Both the position numbers and the translations under genes were made by a program. Below are positions 1 to 25,700 of a stretch of DNA of 41,294 bases, in pieces. The DNA comes from a virus (taxonomy: Duplodnaviria; Heunggongvirae; Uroviricota; Caudoviricetes). Position 1 is the stretch's first letter; each line of letters opens with the position of its first letter. The notes under the pieces are model-generated. The model saw nothing but the letters and a program-made list of their open reading frames with translations. It searched no databases and was not told the origin of the DNA. The DNA lies in IMG/VR virus record IMGVR_UViG_645951847_000024; one strand, given 5' to 3'.

Positions 1-3000
1 TTGCTCACCTTTACGGATTCGCGTCAGGGTACCGCTCGCATTTCAGCCCGCTTACAGCAGGATGCCGATAAAGCGACGTTGCGAGCTCTTTGTTACCAGG
101 AGCTGGCAAATATTACAGAGCCTTCAGCAAAACTCAGCCCGGCACACTGTGCACTGTTAGAGAAAGTTATTAGCCAGTTTTCTGTCCTCCCTTTAAAAAA
201 TTCCATCGACGCGCTGAAAAAAGCGATGGCTGCGAATGAGGAGCTTAGCCCGACGGACATTCAGGCACTTAAAATTATTGAGCCGATGGTGAGTTCCTTA
301 AGCACGGAGCATGCTGAAGCGATGCAAATACTTCAGGCTAACTCTGGCAATCAGCAGAAGAAAACCATGTCATGGCAAACGCTGTCTGAACAGCTGGTTG
401 GCAGTGTGGACCTTGCCGATAGAATGAGAGGCAGTTTTAAAGAATTGTCTGGGCTTGATCTTACTAAACAACAGTTTGCAGATTTTTGTTTATACAGCGA
501 GTTTGGTCGCCGCCCTAAAAATGCCTGGACCCTCGAAAGTCTGGGTCTGGTAGCCATTCACTATCCATTCATTGATAAAGTTACAACCTGCCCGCAGGAC
601 TGGAAGACATTATTACCCGATCCCGATAAGCAATTAGCGGAATGGCGTAATTTATTGAAGATTACTCTTGATTTCTTTATCCGTGAAAACAGTGCCGTTT
701 TTTACGAAAACGAGCAATACCCTCGCTGGATGGGGGCACGTTTCCCGGTAAAAATGCTCCAGGGGCCAGATAAAAAAAACAAAGGGCAGAAACGTGATCA
801 ACTTTGGCCACAAATACGCGATCGCCATTATAACCGGGTCATTAAGCTATTAATCGCAGTCTTTCCGGCAATACAACCTGAGCAGGCTCACTGGAAATCG
901 TTAGTTAACCACTTAATGATTGAGGTCTGGGATGCAATTCGACCCTGCTTACGTCAGTTTGAGTCGGGTTATCAGCTGGATATTAAACAACAAGCTGAAT
1001 TTTACAGTCCAAAGCAAGTGTGGCGTTGCCCCTATACTCGACGTGCGTTAGACGTCACGTTGCTGGGATACTCTCCGTATTTGCCGGGTAGCAAAGAAAT
1101 TGCACCTGAAAAAGCAGTGTTGATTGAAATGCCTGAGCTTCCTGTACGTCACTGGCGTTTGTCTGGTGGTGGAGAAATCGCCCGAGAAGAACGTCTGGAG
1201 TGGCTGGAAAGTAATGCGCTGATTCAACATGCCCGCGAGGAAGGATTATGGTCTACTCGCAGCGACCGACTGGCCCTGAAAGATAGCTGGTATCGTCTGG
1301 AGGAACACTCTGCGCAGAGAACGCCTGAGCAGAACCAGTTTAATGAAAAACAATTTAAGTCAGGCAAAGTTAATGTGCTGAACTGTTCCACGACCATGGA
1401 GATGGGGGTGGATATTGGTGGTATGAGTTTGGTGGCAATGAACAACGTTCCTCCAGCGCCGGCAAATTATTTGCAACGTGCAGGTCGCGCGGGGCGTCGT
1501 GGAGAGAGTGCATCTGCTGCCATTACGTTATGTAAAAACACGGCGCATGGAATGGAGGTATTCAAAGACCCCCTCTGGGCGTTCAACACTACTGCCAGTG
1601 CGCCACGGGTTCGTTTTGGGAGCAGTAGTATTGTTCAACGACATGTTAATGCCCTGGTTTTAGGTCTGTTTTTACGAGCTGAAGTTCCTGATGCGACAAA
1701 ACTGAGTTGCAAATGGTTCTTTGAAGGTGATGAGAGCCAGTGTCTTCGTTTTCTCCATTGGTTAAATCACCAGGCCGATCAGCTGGCGGATAAACTTAAA
1801 CGCCTTACTCAGGGAACCGTACTGATGTCATTGACGGCAACCCAGCTCTTGACCCGCACACAAGCAATGATGCAGCAGGTTGATATCCGCTGGAGAAGCC
1901 AACTTGCGATACTGTTGGAAAATATCGAAGCGTTGAAGGCGGATAACAGCGCGTGGGAAGAAACACCAGCAGGTAAAGCCATCGCTTATCAGCTTCGTGA
2001 TTATCGCGGTGCATATCTGTTTTCTAAACTCATTAGTGAAGCGTTCCTGCCGGGGCATGGTTTCCCGGTTGGCGTAGTCAATTTCAATTATCTGACGGCA
2101 GATGAGCTGGAAAAACGTCGCGCAATAAAAGCCACTCAGGCTGACCCTAATGAAGGGGGAGAAAGCTTTTCTCGTCGTATTGAAAAATTGCCCAGCCGTG
2201 ATTTGCCTACAGCATTACGCGAGTATGCGCCTGGTGCAGATGTGGTATTGGGCGGAAAAGTATATCGTTCCTCGGGCATTATGCTTGGCAAGGTGCTTGC
2301 CAGCGGGCAGGAGCTGTCAGGCGATCATCATATTCCGTGGTTCTGGCATTGCCGTAAATGTGGTGCGGGGGCAACCAGTACTACCCATCCTGTCGAATGT
2401 AGTCACTGCAAAGCGGATATACAGCAACTTGATGTGAAGCGTTATTTACAGCCTGTTGGTTTTGCGACAGATATTCGTTATCAGGCACATAATGATGTAT
2501 CCATGCCTGCACAACTTCCCTGGAAAGATCCACGTGTTCTTGTACCGTCTTCGGTGTGGGTTTCTTTACCCGATGCTGGGCTAGGACGTTACCGTTTTAG
2601 CCATAGTGGGGAATTGTTCCACTTCAGTGAAGGGGAATTTGGGCACGGCTACGCAATTTGCCTCTCATGTGGTCGGGCAGAATCTCAAACTCAACCCCAG
2701 CGTACCCCTGAAAATCTAAAGAACCCAGAGAGGGAAAATACGCATTACCTGTTGCGAGGGGGCAGTAACGATCGTCAGGGGAGCAATAAATTGTGCCACG
2801 GTCATGTGCATAAAGATCTGTGGTTGGGATATAGCAGTCGTACAGATATGGTTGAGCTGCAACTCAATGATGATAATGGCCTGTTGATCCGTGATGAGGT
2901 TGCCGCGCGTTCCCTTGCGGTCGCTTTGCGTGAAGGGTTAGCGCATAAATTGGGTATCGAAAATACTGAGCTGGGCGTGACGACGCAGCAAGCGCGCGAT

Positions 3001-3279
3001 ATCAATGGCTATACCGGATATTCCATCTTCATTTACGACAATAATGCGGGTGGTGCAGGTTATGCAGTGCAATTGATCGACCATTGGGCTGATGTCTTTA
3101 ATTACGCCAGAAAATTGCTCGATTGCAGTTGCGATAAATTCTGTCACCACTGCTTGCTCAGCTACGACAGTCAGCATTATGTCAACAGATTAGATCGTCA
3201 CCATGCATTAACCCTGCTTACCAATGTACGGTTGCAGCGACTTAACCTCGCGCCAGATATAGCGCGGCGATTTTTTTGA
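1..3279 (+). CDS. C-terminal part (5' end cut by window) of a large SF2 helicase with a Cys-rich DUF1998-like zinc-ribbon C-terminal domain; probably host-encoded
   Basis: Helicase C-domain motifs TMEMGVDIGG and QRAGRAGRRG in the translation; C-terminal Cys clusters (CRKCGAG...CSHC, CLSCG, CSCDKFCHHC). ORF starts at window position 1, so truncated. Family assignment from memory only. Confidence 0.6.
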   Translation: MLTFTDSRQGTARISARLQQDADKATLRALCYQELANITEPSAKLSPAHCALLEKVISQFSVLPLKNSIDALKKAMAANEELSPTDIQALKIIEPMVSSLSTEHAEAMQILQANSGNQQKKTMSWQTLSEQLVGSVDLADRMRGSFKELSGLDLTKQQFADFCLYSEFGRRPKNAWTLESLGLVAIHYPFIDKVTTCPQDWKTLLPDPDKQLAEWRNLLKITLDFFIRENSAVFYENEQYPRWMGARFPVKMLQGPDKKNKGQKRDQLWPQIRDRHYNRVIKLLIAVFPAIQPEQAHWKSLVNHLMIEVWDAIRPCLRQFESGYQLDIKQQAEFYSPKQVWRCPYTRRALDVTLLGYSPYLPGSKEIAPEKAVLIEMPELPVRHWRLSGGGEIAREERLEWLESNALIQHAREEGLWSTRSDRLALKDSWYRLEEHSAQRTPEQNQFNEKQFKSGKVNVLNCSTTMEMGVDIGGMSLVAMNNVPPAPANYLQRAGRAGRRGESASAAITLCKNTAHGMEVFKDPLWAFNTTASAPRVRFGSSSIVQRHVNALVLGLFLRAEVPDATKLSCKWFFEGDESQCLRFLHWLNHQADQLADKLKRLTQGTVLMSLTATQLLTRTQAMMQQVDIRWRSQLAILLENIEALKADNSAWEETPAGKAIAYQLRDYRGAYLFSKLISEAFLPGHGFPVGVVNFNYLTADELEKRRAIKATQADPNEGGESFSRRIEKLPSRDLPTALREYAPGADVVLGGKVYRSSGIMLGKVLASGQELSGDHHIPWFWHCRKCGAGATSTTHPVECSHCKADIQQLDVKRYLQPVGFATDIRYQAHNDVSMPAQLPWKDPRVLVPSSVWVSLPDAGLGRYRFSHSGELFHFSEGEFGHGYAICLSCGRAESQTQPQRTPENLKNPERENTHYLLRGGSNDRQGSNKLCHGHVHKDLWLGYSSRTDMVELQLNDDNGLLIRDEVAARSLAVALREGLAHKLGIENTELGVTTQQARDINGYTGYSIFIYDNNAGGAGYAVQLIDHWADVFNYARKLLDCSCDKFCHHCLLSYDSQHYVNRLDRHHALTLLTNVRLQRLNLAPDIARRFF

Positions 3280-5514: not shown

Positions 5515-7544
5515 ACCGCTTTTTTCACTTCCACCACAATGCTGTCAATCAGCACCGGGTAAGTTGCATTTTTTGTGATATCCGTTACGCGGAGTTTGTC
5601 CACCGGGAAAGTTCCTACTGGTGACTGCGTCAGGGTAAACGCGGCACCATCCTGACCATCAATAACCGGAATAACCTGAAGGCTGTTATTTCCTGCAAAA
5701 CGGAAGGCCAGCGTATGCCATTCATTATCAAATGCACCAAAGGTTCCCAGTTTCTGGTTATTTGTTGCCACTTTTGCATTGTGGTACATCACATTCAGGT
5801 CTTTTGCGTCTGTCTGGATGTAGAACGATGCCAGCAGATTATTCCCTGCATCCCCTGTCAGGGTGACACCCTGCGGCAGAGAGGAAACCGGCCAGTAAAG
5901 CCCCATGACATACTGGTTTGCCACCAGGTCGCCAGGTACTTTAAAACGACAACTGATTAAACCACCATTTTTCAGCAGTTCAGCACCAGTACCGGCATCA
6001 TGATCCAGATACCAAGATGATTTACCTGTTTCCTTGGTCAGTTTCATTGCCTTACCACCTGTGCCTCCTGCATCACTGATAATTTCAGCTTTACCGCCAG
6101 CCGGCTCCCAGCCCTGGGCTTTCAGATTTCCTTCTGACTCACTGACACGATAAGACAGCAGTGTTGTGGTTACTGCTTCAGTTTCTGAAGGTGACGGCAC
6201 TGGTGCTTCAGTTTCAGAAGATGGAACATCGGCTTTTACTGTGGTTCGCCCCGCATGAGTCAGAACTGCCGTGGCCAGACGGTCGGAAATAATCCCACGA
6301 CGTGCCCATGAACTGAAATGGCTGGCCCGGTCCGCAGATGTCCAGGTGGCGGCACTGTTACGCCACGTTGAGCCGTAATAACCAATGGATTCAATATCCG
6401 GGTCTTCTGCCGGATTGTTGGTGGGTACATTCGCGTCATTTTCATCTGTCATTAATGGAACGAAATGAATGTTTTTATCTGTTTTGTTTTTGTAGCCGCC
6501 ATAGATTGCCTGGTATGCCGGTTCATTTTTCTGTTTCCAGAAATACGTGGTATCGCCACAAATCCACGGAACGCCAGCAGCACTGCCACCGGTACACTGT
6601 TCCGCCTGTTCAGCCAGGTCTGCGCGGAATTTTTCCACCATCGCCAGAAACAGCGCGGAATGCTCCGTCGGCTTCGCATCAATATCAAACTCGCCCTGCA
6701 TCCACACCACAGCAAGCAGGCGGTTTTTCGGGTTCTTCGCCAGTGCCGCTTTTGTCCGGCTGATTAAGTCCTTATACAGCGGCTTATCCACACCCCAGCG
6801 GGCTGAGTCCTCTGAAGCACCCGTGCTGTCACTGTACGTGCCGTCAGCACCCGCCGTGAATGCAGAACCACCACGGCAGCAGGGAACCAGCAGAATCCCC
6901 GCATCTGCCGGAATAAACGGCAGCAGTTTTTTGGCAATGTGAAGCCCCTGACCCACGGTGCCATATTGCCCTTTAGCCACATCCGCTTTCGGGTGATTTT
7001 TTCCACTCATATCCTGCACATCATGCAGACAGTGGTCGGCCAGAATGATGTCGTTATACTGACAGGCTTTACCTCCCGGCGTGACTGTACTGCGACGGGC
7101 TAACTGCATAATACGCGGTTCGGGGCGGTCATATGTCTCCGGCAGTGGCAGACCTTCACCGTAAGCCATACCGTTTGACTGACCAGCAAGAACCACCACG
7201 TAATACCAGGAAGGGGAGCTGGAAGCAGTTTCATTTCCTGACGGACGGGTATGTGTTTCAGCATTATCCCAGTCTGACGGTTCAGCAGTACCGGCAACAT
7301 CAGCACTTAACGGAATGACCGCACCAATACCCGCTCCGGTAATTTCCACACTCGGATCACCGGATACTGGCCTTACCCACAGGCAATCCCGTGTATTAAA
7401 ACTGATGAGACAGTCAGCAAATGTCATTCCTCCTTTTGTTTCGGCCGGAGGAAAGGGAGCCTCAAGAAATGCCGCTGTACCACCGGAAACTTTAACAGTA
7501 AAGTTTCCGGGCATTGATGATAGTTGAACCCATTTGGACGTCAT
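5505..7544 (-). CDS. Predicted sialate O-acetylesterase-like cargo protein (SGNH/SASA-type esterase with extra N- and C-terminal domains), NanS-p-like
   Basis: 679 aa; VVLAGQSNGMAYGEG resembles the GQSN catalytic-Ser block of sialic-acid-specific acetylesterases; sits between gin and com-mom, where Mu has no gene. Family from memory. Confidence 0.6.
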   Translation of the reverse strand: MTSKWVQLSSMPGNFTVKVSGGTAAFLEAPFPPAETKGGMTFADCLISFNTRDCLWVRPVSGDPSVEITGAGIGAVIPLSADVAGTAEPSDWDNAETHTRPSGNETASSSPSWYYVVVLAGQSNGMAYGEGLPLPETYDRPEPRIMQLARRSTVTPGGKACQYNDIILADHCLHDVQDMSGKNHPKADVAKGQYGTVGQGLHIAKKLLPFIPADAGILLVPCCRGGSAFTAGADGTYSDSTGASEDSARWGVDKPLYKDLISRTKAALAKNPKNRLLAVVWMQGEFDIDAKPTEHSALFLAMVEKFRADLAEQAEQCTGGSAAGVPWICGDTTYFWKQKNEPAYQAIYGGYKNKTDKNIHFVPLMTDENDANVPTNNPAEDPDIESIGYYGSTWRNSAATWTSADRASHFSSWARRGIISDRLATAVLTHAGRTTVKADVPSSETEAPVPSPSETEAVTTTLLSYRVSESEGNLKAQGWEPAGGKAEIISDAGGTGGKAMKLTKETGKSSWYLDHDAGTGAELLKNGGLISCRFKVPGDLVANQYVMGLYWPVSSLPQGVTLTGDAGNNLLASFYIQTDAKDLNVMYHNAKVATNNQKLGTFGAFDNEWHTLAFRFAGNNSLQVIPVIDGQDGAAFTLTQSPVGTFPVDKLRVTDITKNATYPVLIDSIVVEVKKAVTE

Positions 7545-20098: not shown

Positions 20099-20659
20099 TT
20101 ACAGTTCCTCCGGCGGTTCGACCGCCGTTGTCGTGTTCCCCGGCAAATCAATATGTGCCTCAAACGGCGGCGTACCGGGCGGCTCCACAAAGGTTTCGTA
20201 ATGACGCAGGAAGTCGTCCAGCGAGCTGGTATCGGTCAGCGGTGCGATCATTTCCTCGCAGGAGAAATAAAGCGCATACATCACCGCACCACTGTCCGCC
20301 TGGGTTTCGGTGTAACCGTTGACCGCCTTTTCAAAGTAAAGCGGTGAGGTTTTTTCTGTTCTGAAGCCGTTAAGCACGGCAATCAGCCGGGCCACAATCT
20401 GATACAGTCCGGGACGGCTGGCCTCACGCCCGTTGAGCATGTCGCCGATGACGTAGAACACCCAGTGACTGACCAGGCGACCACGGGTACGGCCTTCACC
20501 GGCACCCAGCCAGGCAACGTAGATCGCCGGGGCGTTAATCAGCATGGTGCGCAGTACGCTGTCGCTCCAGTCGCCGGGATGCGTGTCAACAGACACCAGT
20601 TCATTCCCGAAATACTCACGGATACGGGCGATGTATGCCTGTTCGGTTTCCGTAATCAT
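20099..20659 (-). CDS. Mu gp37-like protein
   Basis: 186 aa; synteny. Confidence 0.55.
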   Translation of the reverse strand: MITETEQAYIARIREYFGNELVSVDTHPGDWSDSVLRTMLINAPAIYVAWLGAGEGRTRGRLVSHWVFYVIGDMLNGREASRPGLYQIVARLIAVLNGFRTEKTSPLYFEKAVNGYTETQADSGAVMYALYFSCEEMIAPLTDTSSLDDFLRHYETFVEPPGTPPFEAHIDLPGNTTTAVEPPEEL

Positions 20660-21075
20660 ATGAAGCCCTTCTGGTTGCGCCCGAATACCGCTGCATCAGA
20701 CTGAACCTGTGGTAAATCCCCGGATTCAGGGGCCGCACCGTTCGTATCCACACCGACCGGCACATTGCCGTTCATGACATCTTTCAGCCAGGCCAGCGCT
20801 TCACGGTAACGGTCACGCGCCTGATCGGAGGCTCGCTGATCGCACAGGTAATAAAAGGCAATCGCGCAACAGTGCTGAACAAGAACGGCCGGAATAACCT
20901 CCAGCGGCAACGTGTAACGGGCGGACAGATAGCTGTCGATAAGGGCTGACGCATCTGTCAGCGCCCGGTTCAGCTTGCGCGTGTCCGGCTCATCCGAACG
21001 GGGCACAGCCAGTAACGGCCTGAGCAAATCCTCGCGGTAACGCGCCCGCATATCGGTTTCAGTGGCGTAATTCAT
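20656..21075 (-). CDS. Mu gp36-like protein
   Basis: 139 aa; synteny. Confidence 0.55.
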   Translation of the reverse strand: MNYATETDMRARYREDLLRPLLAVPRSDEPDTRKLNRALTDASALIDSYLSARYTLPLEVIPAVLVQHCCAIAFYYLCDQRASDQARDRYREALAWLKDVMNGNVPVGVDTNGAAPESGDLPQVQSDAAVFGRNQKGFI

Positions 21076-21482
21076 GCACGGGCCTGTTCCGCTTTGTTAC
21101 CGGTCTTTTTCCGGGGAGCATCCTGTCCGGCTTCGGCTTCGGCTTCGGCTTCGGCTTCGGCTTCGGCTTCGGCTTCGGCTTCGGCTTCGGCTTCGGCTTC
21201 GGCTAAATCTGTACCGGCCACTGCATGAACCACACCCGCCACGCTCCCCGCATCATCAGCAGACGTCTGTAGTATTCGCACAGTGAGGCATGGCTCCTCC
21301 TCCAGTCGGGCAAGCTGCTCCGGGGTGACCTCAACCTGCTGACGTCCACGCGTGAACAGGAACCCCGCACGACGAAACGCCGAACGACTGCAACGCACTT
21401 CTGCCAGCACCGTGACAGAATTGTCACCACTGACCTGAAGACCTGAATCATCTGTTGCTGCCACAGTGTGATGTTCATTCAT
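21072..21482 (-). CDS. Small head-module protein (Mu gp35-like) with an internal (Glu-Ala)12 tract
   Basis: 136 aa after the major capsid gene; C-terminal tract AEAEAE... encoded by the hexanucleotide repeat. Confidence 0.55.
   Translation of the reverse strand: MNEHHTVAATDDSGLQVSGDNSVTVLAEVRCSRSAFRRAGFLFTRGRQQVEVTPEQLARLEEEPCLTVRILQTSADDAGSVAGVVHAVAGTDLAEAEAEAEAEAEAEAEAEAEAEAEAGQDAPRKKTGNKAEQARA
21131..21202. repeat. Perfect tandem hexanucleotide repeat (CTTCGG)12 on plus = (CCGAAG)12 on minus, in frame
   Basis: Twelve identical 6-bp units read directly from 21131 to 21202. Confidence 0.95.
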
Positions 21483-21525
21483 ATTTGCCCTCCGCAGGGG
21501 CCGGGCCGTAAGCCCGGCTCACCGT

Positions 21526-22473
21526 TTACAGATAATCCGCGACAACCAGCTCCAGCTTACCCTTCATCTCGTTAGAGACGGTTGCGTTTCCGTCTGCGAA
21601 CAGTTCACGCTCCAGCAGCTGCACCGCCTGTTTTTCCAGCGAGGTGGGGACAACAATATGGGTGGGTTTAATGCCGAGTTTGCGGCCACCGTCAGCGGTA
21701 AATTCGCGCATGGCTGACCAGCCGTGCCACAGTGCATCCAGCGTCAGCGGTGACTGCATCATGTAGGCCATCTGCCAGAAGCCGTAGCCCACATTGCGAC
21801 GGGCGGATGCACCAAACACAAATTCGTTATCGGTGAATGCGCGACCTTCATCGACTTTGGTCTGGGCAACCAGTTCAGCCTTACGGCGATCCTGATAAAT
21901 CAGCGGTTTTACCGCGCGGGAGCAGTCAAGCAGATACCAGGCCGGACCGCTGTAATCAGCCTGTGCGCCGACAGAGCCGGTTTTTGCCACAAACATATTG
22001 CTGACCATCTGCGCATCCCCGGAGCCATCCACTTTGGGGTAAACCGGATGTTCGGTATCAAAGAAGTTCTGACCGTCATAGCAGGCCGCACTGATCCCGT
22101 CACGCAGGGCAGCAAAGACCAGCTCATCCGGTTGTACCGCCGCAGCGCGCCCCATCTCCTGGAACAACGGGGAATAAATACCGAGGTTGTCGTCTTCGAA
22201 GTCATCGCGGCTAATGGCGACAGTGCCTTCAAAAGTTTTGTTCACGATGGCATAGCCATAGGCTTTCATCTTCTCGATGACGCGGGAGCCGATCCACTCA
22301 CGGAACTGCGGGAACTGCCCCAGCCAGCCGTAGGTGTTGGATTTCGATGTGGAGGGCACGGTCATCGCAATTTTTTTATACTGCGACGGGGCCATGGACA
22401 TCCCGGCCTGAAAATCAGAACGGTAGCCCGTCATCAGGGCTGTGATCATCGCCGGTGTAATCGGGGTAGGCAT
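21526..22473 (-). CDS. Major head (capsid) protein, Mu T-like
   Basis: 315 aa following the protease/scaffold gene; size and position match Mu T. Confidence 0.8.
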   Translation of the reverse strand: MPTPITPAMITALMTGYRSDFQAGMSMAPSQYKKIAMTVPSTSKSNTYGWLGQFPQFREWIGSRVIEKMKAYGYAIVNKTFEGTVAISRDDFEDDNLGIYSPLFQEMGRAAAVQPDELVFAALRDGISAACYDGQNFFDTEHPVYPKVDGSGDAQMVSNMFVAKTGSVGAQADYSGPAWYLLDCSRAVKPLIYQDRRKAELVAQTKVDEGRAFTDNEFVFGASARRNVGYGFWQMAYMMQSPLTLDALWHGWSAMREFTADGGRKLGIKPTHIVVPTSLEKQAVQLLERELFADGNATVSNEMKGKLELVVADYL

Positions 22474-24247: not shown

Positions 24248-24368
24248 ATTGCCTCCGCATAAAGGATGAATATAAAATAAACAGGCGGTCAGTGTACGCT
24301 TAACTGGTAAAGTCGGTGCCTGCCTCCGGGTGGATCATGTATGCGGGTTCAACCCCCGCCACTGACCG

Positions 24369-25700
24369 TTAATCAATATCTCCTTCCAGTACCTCAAGCA
24401 TTCCACCCCGGATATCCGATTTCAGCTTATCCATATTGATAACCCGGTAAGCATTCACAATCACATCCAGTTTATCCGGCTGACGCTTCAGGCTGTACGG
24501 CGCATTAACGGCAATCTGCACACTGCTATCCTTACTTTCCACGATATACATCAGATTGTTGTGGCGTTTGTCCCACAGCACCGCTTTTGGCTTTGCCAGC
24601 ATTGCCGGTAATCGACCGAAATCCTCCGGCGTCAGGGCGATACCGTCATTCTGATGTTTCATGCTGTCCGCATGGAGCACATTTTTACCGCTCATCGCCA
24701 GCAGGCGGGCCGGTGGCGTTCCCGTCCGGCTTTCCACCGCCTGCGCAATGCTTTCGGTCATAAAGCCCAGCGTGCGGATATCGTTACCGCCTCGCCGGGT
24801 TTTCATGATGTTTTTTGCCCAGATGCGGAACGCCAGCTGCCGCTCCGGGCTGTTGTTCATCTCCTGCACTACCATTTCCCGCAGCGCCGGGCTTTTCACC
24901 TCGATCAGTTTACGGATCAACGCCTGGTCTGTGCCGAACGCCGCCGAGCCGGGGTTATATGACCAGCCCACATCCGGTGTCATGGTTCTGGTGCCATCTG
25001 AATATGTGGTCACCGGCATTTCTCTGACTTCTCCGGTCTGCTTATCCACGCCAGCCTCAACATTGCGGGTGGAAAGATGATCCTGACCGGATGAAACGGA
25101 TAACCCCATTGCATCCAGACGGGTCTGAGACAATGGCCGGACACGGCAGCGGCAGTTCCAGCCATTGGGTGGGTAGTGTGTATTCCAGAACGGATCGTCA
25201 TAGCGGAATACCTGCCCGTTAAGGGCGGAATGCGCCGGGCGGGTGCGGCTGTCCATCACCGCCACATACTGCCAGAACGGATGCGTGTCCGTGTTGTTCA
25301 TCATCTGCGTGTAACGCCCGGCATTGTAAGCCACGCGGGTGTTCACGTTGTAAATCAGCGCCAGACGGCGGGGACTGCCCAGTTGCACTTCTTCTGCGTT
25401 ACCGGCGCTGTCCACCACAATCTGCTTTCCCCACCATCCCAGCTTTTGCAGGCGGGGTGTCAGTGTGCGGATAAATGCTTTCTGTGAAATCCCCTCATCA
25501 ACAGCACGCTGCACTTCCGCCTGTAGTGTGGTCAGTACGTCCAGGCGTGCCACTTTTGCCGCCGTGAATGAACGGGCATGAACATCCGCGTCTGTTTCGA
25601 ACCAGTTCCAGCTGATATGCGCCCCTTTGGCGCGGAAGTATGCCACCGCCTCTTTTGAGGGAAGCGTGGCGGCATAACCTAAATCAATCCCCTGTGCCAT
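24369..25700 (-). CDS. Head morphogenesis protein, Mu F (gp30)-like
   Basis: 443 aa directly downstream of and overlapping the portal gene. Confidence 0.75.
   Translation of the reverse strand: MAQGIDLGYAATLPSKEAVAYFRAKGAHISWNWFETDADVHARSFTAAKVARLDVLTTLQAEVQRAVDEGISQKAFIRTLTPRLQKLGWWGKQIVVDSAGNAEEVQLGSPRRLALIYNVNTRVAYNAGRYTQMMNNTDTHPFWQYVAVMDSRTRPAHSALNGQVFRYDDPFWNTHYPPNGWNCRCRVRPLSQTRLDAMGLSVSSGQDHLSTRNVEAGVDKQTGEVREMPVTTYSDGTRTMTPDVGWSYNPGSAAFGTDQALIRKLIEVKSPALREMVVQEMNNSPERQLAFRIWAKNIMKTRRGGNDIRTLGFMTESIAQAVESRTGTPPARLLAMSGKNVLHADSMKHQNDGIALTPEDFGRLPAMLAKPKAVLWDKRHNNLMYIVESKDSSVQIAVNAPYSLKRQPDKLDVIVNAYRVINMDKLKSDIRGGMLEVLEGDID

Follow-up and report, generated by a model that had tools for sequence, protein, structure and literature searches.

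We found that a perfect hexanucleotide repeat in a small gene of a Mu-like prophage is the MLVA locus EHC-5, an identity based on the EHC-5 primers as reproduced in PMC10062581, published later by the group that described the locus. The reading that we consider very probable is that this tract is a hypermutable VNTR, in which slippage alters the length of a disordered, length-tolerant segment of a gp35-like protein and that length drifts in a near-neutral manner. The window, meaning the whole stretch of DNA that was analysed, is 41,294 nucleotides long, and the features that carry the argument are listed here with the evidence for each.

21128..21204, minus strand: perfect hexanucleotide VNTR (TRF, direct reading, codon listing)
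21072..21482, minus strand: 136-aa ORF for a Mu gp35 / HI1506-related protein (Pfam, phrog_3622, PDB 2OUT, tblastn, AF2)
20656..21075, minus strand: downstream gene for a Mu gp36-type head-tail adaptor (Pfam Phage_Mu_Gp36, 3.5e-35)
21526..22473, minus strand: upstream gene for the Mu-like major head subunit gpT (Pfam Mu-like_gpT, 6.6e-119)
21089..21111, plus strand: EHC-5 reverse primer site CCGCTTTGTTACCGGTCTTTTTC (0 mismatches, unique in the window)
21253..21275, minus strand: EHC-5 forward primer site ATACTACAGACGTCTGCTGATGA (0 mismatches, unique in the window)

The array at 21128..21204 was reported by TRF with a period of 6, 12.8 copies, 100% matches and a score of 154, compared with a score of 44 for the runner-up array in the 41-kb window. 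Read directly, the interval 21131..21202 is exactly (CTTCGG)12 on the plus strand and hence (CCGAAG)12 on the minus strand. The original prediction had given CCGAAG as the unit, which is exact as sequence in that interval and is a rotation of the unit in which the codons are read: the coding register is (GAA GCC)12 at 21129..21200 on the minus strand. It encodes (Glu-Ala)12, residues 95-118 of the 136-aa ORF, and one extra GCC codon (Ala94) stands before it. A probe of three units gave 10 overlapping matches, against 0 expected from 100 dinucleotide-preserving shuffles. The earlier claim of a perfect, in-frame, twelve-copy microsatellite encoding (Glu-Ala)12 is thus borne out by TRF, the sequence itself, the codon listing and the shuffles, which confirm that the period-6 array is real, in frame, Glu-Ala-coding and far beyond chance.

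We also considered a plus-strand ORF at 21074..21286, which would yield an (Arg-Leu)n product. We rejected it, since it lies antisense to a gene with Pfam support and since, in the homologues found, the tract is always read as Glu-Ala. One E. coli homologue (P0071) has a tract region that reads ...TKPKPKPDEG... and is back in the normal frame before RKKTGNK; here the DNA repeat is read as Lys-Pro through a frameshift that is compensated later, which could reflect a real variant or a sequencing error.

The primer sequences of EHC-5, taken from the S5 Table of PMC10062581, match the window in convergent orientation and define a 187-bp amplicon (21089..21275) that contains the tract. As given in PMC10062581, the scheme to which EHC-5 belongs is the Japanese O157/O26/O111 MLVA, described by Izumiya et al. 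in 2010 (Microbiol Immunol 54:569) and extended in 2020. Table 2 of that 2023 MLVA paper lists EHC-5 as missing from most O157 clades and as very variable where it is present; the Chiba O157 isolates show EHC-5 alleles of 2 to 14, and, depending on the clade, 31-100% of strains lack it (PMC10062581). Our own counts show the same two properties. Copy number varies from 1 to 20 units (published alleles, 2-14), and many strains lack the locus, which we found in 228 of the 5426 complete E. coli genomes (published absence, 31-100% per Chiba O157 clade). Such frequent absence is expected for a VNTR carried on a mobile prophage. Primers of EHC-1, -2, -6, EH157-12, EH26-7 and EH111-8, -11 and -14 (for some of these loci, one primer) were without a match in the window. 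A literature search on MLVA or VNTR with O157, Mu-like or Sp18 found nothing useful for the locus. We conclude that the length polymorphism of this tract was already known and exploited as EHC-5, and is not new. Comparison of its copy number between strains has effectively been routine practice for more than 10 years, and its practical value is already in place, as EHC-5 is used to subtype EHEC in outbreak surveillance.

A 521-bp region around the tract occurs in those 228 genomes at up to 4 places per genome. Among the matches listed, from 229 matching records, the shortest matched span is 461 bp and the longest 569 bp, and the spans form two classes modulo 6, which amounts to whole-unit changes on two backbones. 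What separates the two backbones is a 9-bp variant in the C-terminal tail. Strain 48 (deer; NZ_CP166879.1) and other records have 2-4 places for this region. The unit counts given here were obtained by reading the tracts directly in fetched loci with identical or near-identical backbones.

L009: 1 unit
L010: 2 units
L003: 4 units
Window: 12 units
L004 (strain 121): 13 units
L005 (strain 119): 14 units
L007: 17 units, EV-EA-EV followed by (EA)14
L008: 17 units, GA followed by (EA)16
L002: 18 units
L001: 20 units

All of these alleles translate to an intact ORF. L004 and L005, which come from near-clonal cattle isolates, were compared across 40.5 kb: they have 0 mismatches, and their only difference is one 6-bp gap, located in the tract. 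The window, L004 and L005 carry 12, 13 and 14 units, yet show 0 mismatches across 6.4 kb of flanks, and L001 and L002 differ by two units (20 and 18) with 0 mismatches. On the evidence of these alignments, the tract evolves much more rapidly than the sequence around it. Cluster representatives of the protein have 1-8 units with occasional EV, ES, ET and GA variants. Length polymorphism without frameshift had been predicted, together with a comparison of copy number across related prophages as the way to check it; that comparison was run and found alleles from 1 to 20 units between identical flanks, with the ORF open in every one. Several database proteins (P0052, P0061, P0062 and P0069) are labelled 'partial' and end at or inside the tract, P0052 standing for 82 member sequences. 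Short-read assemblies evidently often break at the tract, which would be expected where one genome holds several prophage copies that differ in tract length.

The window from 3258 to 41294 is 99.976% identical to the complete Mu-like prophage of E. coli strain 121, which spans mom/com to transposase; the two differ by 3 mismatches and one 6-bp gap. Close relatives of the window prophage are annotated 'Bacteriophage Mu-like phage' and lie within Stx-converting phages. We conclude that the repeat-bearing ORF is carried by a transposable Mu-like prophage of Shiga-toxin-producing E. coli. Gene order in the window is that of Mu (AF083977), in which the position of the repeat-bearing ORF is occupied by gene 35. 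On the minus strand, a Mu-type protease/scaffold gene I lies further upstream, beyond gpT, and the gp36-type adaptor is followed by a gp37-type terminator, a DUF2635 protein and the tail sheath (all by Pfam). The ATG of the gp36-type gene overlaps the stop codon of the repeat-bearing ORF (ATGA). The gene had been assigned to the head module, which stands as a statement about position, between gpT and gp36; gp35 itself has not been located in the Mu virion (PMC11915804).

Several further observations concern the prophage and its surroundings. A plus-strand ORF of 1092 aa at 1..3279, which has Helicase_C and MrfA Zn-binding (MZB) domains, extends about 20 bp past the start of the Mu-like homology (junction near 3258), so the prophage apparently lies within or at the 3' end of a helicase-like gene of the host. 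In strain 121 the insertion site is a different one, the prophage there being flanked by a fimbrial operon. RefSeq annotates a 'tRNA-OTHER' at 6335..6415 of L001 and 6323..6403 of L002 (about 24290..24370 of the window), in the spacer that separates the virion-morphogenesis gene of this prophage from its head-morphogenesis gene, and ARAGORN called no tRNA in the whole window. A promoter and terminator scan around the repeat-bearing gene found neither. The 43-bp spacer between gpT and the gp35-like gene contains, at about 21490..21520 on the minus strand, a hairpin rich in GC, GCCGGGC-UUAC-GGCCCGGC, which is part of a longer stem (RNA MFE -23.6 kcal/mol, z = -2.1); the terminator scan did not call it because it has no U-tract. 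Mu has a terminator predicted by TransTermHP after gene T, at the position equal to that of this hairpin. Because of the hairpin, the neck genes may be expressed less strongly than the capsid gene.

By its sequence relationships, we identify the repeat-bearing protein as a homologue of Mu gp35 and HI1506. Its FluMu_N domain (Pfam PF17891) scores 35 bits over residues 36-72 against a gathering score of 25.8 bits, and Mu gp35 itself scores 40.8 bits. The ORF also matches phrog_3622, matches PDB 2OUT by sequence and by fold, and matches Mu gene 35 in tblastn; RefSeq names the protein 'HI1506-related protein'. Its gene lies between gpT and gp36, as gene 35 does in Mu AF083977. Mu gp35, HI1506 (PDB 2OUT) and most distant homologues share a two-domain layout. 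In Mu gp35, likewise 136 aa long, a short linker (...SAETLAEAGGLDVLGVGD) connects the N-domain to a C-terminal domain of about 50 aa. In the window protein and its E. coli relatives, the columns of the alignment that hold this second folded domain are empty: after ...TDLA the window protein continues with (EA)n and then an 18-aa basic tail, GQDAPRKKTGNKAEQARA. The window protein is therefore a truncated or variant member of the family that has the N-domain only. At the position of (EA)n, Mu gp35 has 'TLAEAGG', so that the tract falls on the LAEAG of the interdomain linker, which suggests that it expanded from a linker motif.

A deep homologue search returned 17 representatives only, indicating a small family and accounting for the shallow alignment used in structure prediction. 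In a minority of the distant homologues (P0086, P0091 and P0098), long low-complexity tails of Ala, Lys, Glu and Asp take the place of the C-domain. Replacement of the C-domain by a low-complexity tail seems, from these comparisons, to recur in the FluMu_N family. P0096, another distant FluMu_N homologue, has the N-domain followed by a low-complexity or coiled-coil-like tail and no HI1506-type C-domain. Literature searches found no function for HI1506 and, for FluMu gp35, mentions in genome annotation only. The gp35 of JBD30 was set aside as not relevant: it is an unrelated anti-CRISPR, and the minor capsid protein of that phage is gp39, which has a Soc-like fold.

The AF2 model has pLDDT of about 90 for residues 23-75, the approximate extent of the folded FluMu_N domain, which form a beta-hairpin, a helix and a strand. 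No structure was predicted past residue 78: pLDDT stays below 50 for residues 79-136, which are devoid of secondary structure. Taking low pLDDT as a proxy for disorder, with an alignment of 18 sequences, the segment at residues 79-136, which holds (EA)12, is predicted to be disordered, and the (EA)n stretch could form a helix in context. The tract had been proposed to act as a flexible spacer. The AF2 prediction is consistent with the flexibility; as a spacer it does not join two folded domains, as only the 18-aa basic tail follows it. When the model was compared with the PDB, 2OUT was the sole meaningful match, none of the matches was a virion component, and we found no virion structure that contains a FluMu_N protein. 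The N-domain model also bears a weak structural resemblance to YqbF of B. subtilis (PDB 2HJQ), with an E-value of 1.9, a probability of 0.69 and an rmsd of 1.7 A across 43 columns, which is too weak to use; YqbF is also a small prophage-encoded protein. A capsid decoration or cement protein would sit on the surface of the capsid, between capsomers at the three-fold or quasi-three-fold axes. In the 2025 cryo-EM study of Mu, gp35 was not found or resolved in the virion, and the Mu capsid is reported to lack cement proteins (PMC11915804).

These results fit a simple series of steps. Slipped-strand mispairing during replication would add or remove whole GAA-GCC units. With a 6-bp unit, every allele keeps the reading frame and the ATGA overlap with the adaptor gene, since in-frame changes leave the junction between the gp35-like stop codon and the gp36 start intact. 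The layout places (Glu-Ala)n between the folded FluMu_N domain and the 18-residue basic C-terminal tail, at the linker position of Mu gp35/HI1506, in a segment predicted to be disordered, and the protein tolerates 1 to 20 units in prophages that are otherwise identical. From this tolerance of many lengths, we infer that tract length drifts almost neutrally and would be useful only as a strain marker. We ruled out hairpin-driven instability: as a single strand, the tract has no stable fold and forms less structure than its shuffled controls (z = +3.3), so that simple slippage suffices and a hairpin is not needed.

We weighed the hypothesis that tract length is instead adaptive. Here the length of the acidic (EA)n stretch would set how far the basic tail reaches from the FluMu_N domain, for example to packaged DNA or the connector, and different lengths would be selected in different hosts or conditions, making the tract an evolvability locus for the phage. 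The tract does stand at the interdomain-linker position of a conserved head/neck-module protein, and the long Ala/Glu/Lys/Asp tails borne independently by distant homologues may mean that this architecture is selected. The prophage is also apparently mobile: its insertion sites vary, some copies lie inside Stx phages, and a single genome can hold it at up to 4 places. Identical backbones, however, carry anything from 1 to 20 units and show no length preference within lineages, and the one-unit difference between near-clonal isolates is what drift would be expected to produce; moreover, gp35 does not show up in the Mu virion map (PMC11915804). We therefore regard a length-dependent reach of the tail as unlikely. 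That (Glu-Ala)n length tunes a gp35-like accessory protein of the head or neck, as a heritable and rapidly adjustable setting for virion assembly or stability, we hold to be quite improbable. If tract length did affect phage fitness, this would be a rare case of a tunable protein in a structural module, although our results give no indication of such an effect.

A second alternative is that the tract acts at the level of nucleic acid, where its length would alter mRNA structure or ribosome transit ahead of the gp36 start, which is translationally coupled, and would thereby adjust how much adaptor is made. A distance of 54 nt separates the end of the tract from the gp36 ATG downstream, this ATG overlaps the stop codon of gp35, and the hairpin in the gpT/gp35-like spacer, together with the terminator predicted there in Mu, may hint at regulation downstream of gpT. 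Against this, GAA and GCC are common E. coli codons, the coupling junction is preserved in all alleles, and the tract is, as noted above, less structured than its shuffles; we consider an effect of this kind highly improbable. Finally, although many proteins from draft genomes are labelled 'partial' and break off inside the tract, where assemblers struggle, an assembler or sequencing error behind the copy number or the repeat itself is scarcely credible, given that more than 200 complete genomes, produced in many laboratories, carry the tract as clean whole-unit alleles and that it is routinely sized by PCR fragment analysis as EHC-5. None of the three alternatives gained positive support.

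With near-neutral slippage as the preferred reading, what is new here is context. EHC-5 travels on a Mu-like prophage that is transposable, where it codes for a Glu-Ala stretch of variable length in the tail, predicted to be disordered, of a Mu gp35 homologue that has no C-terminal domain. Carriage on such a prophage explains why some strains give null alleles and why one genome may hold several copies. Several copies could yield multiple or ambiguous fragment sizes, and if copies within one genome differ in tract length, this matters for MLVA fragment calling.

Comparison with known systems places the tract as follows. At the DNA level, there is no difference between EHC-5 and the window tract. 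PMC10062581 uses EHC-5 as a size marker and is silent on the gene and protein, which are linked here to a Mu gp35-like protein and its linker. Mu gp35 and HI1506 resemble the window protein in their N-terminal domain and in gene position between gpT and gp36, and they keep the folded C-terminal domain of about 50 aa in place of which the window protein has only (EA)n and its basic tail. Like bacterial contingency loci, the tract is a hypermutable simple repeat within a gene that changes by slippage. Contingency loci, however, toggle expression through frameshifts or promoter spacing, whereas the 6-bp unit here stays in frame and only length changes; as alleles of 1-20 units all give intact proteins, we rejected a phase-variable contingency locus. 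The loci O157-3, -9, -17, -19, -25 and -37 have 6-bp units and mutate by slippage. They belong to the same MLVA scheme as EHC-5 and have many alleles each (allele tables of PMC10062581). Most of them are found in nearly all O157 strains (PMC10062581), whereas the window locus rides a Mu-like prophage and is missing in most strains.
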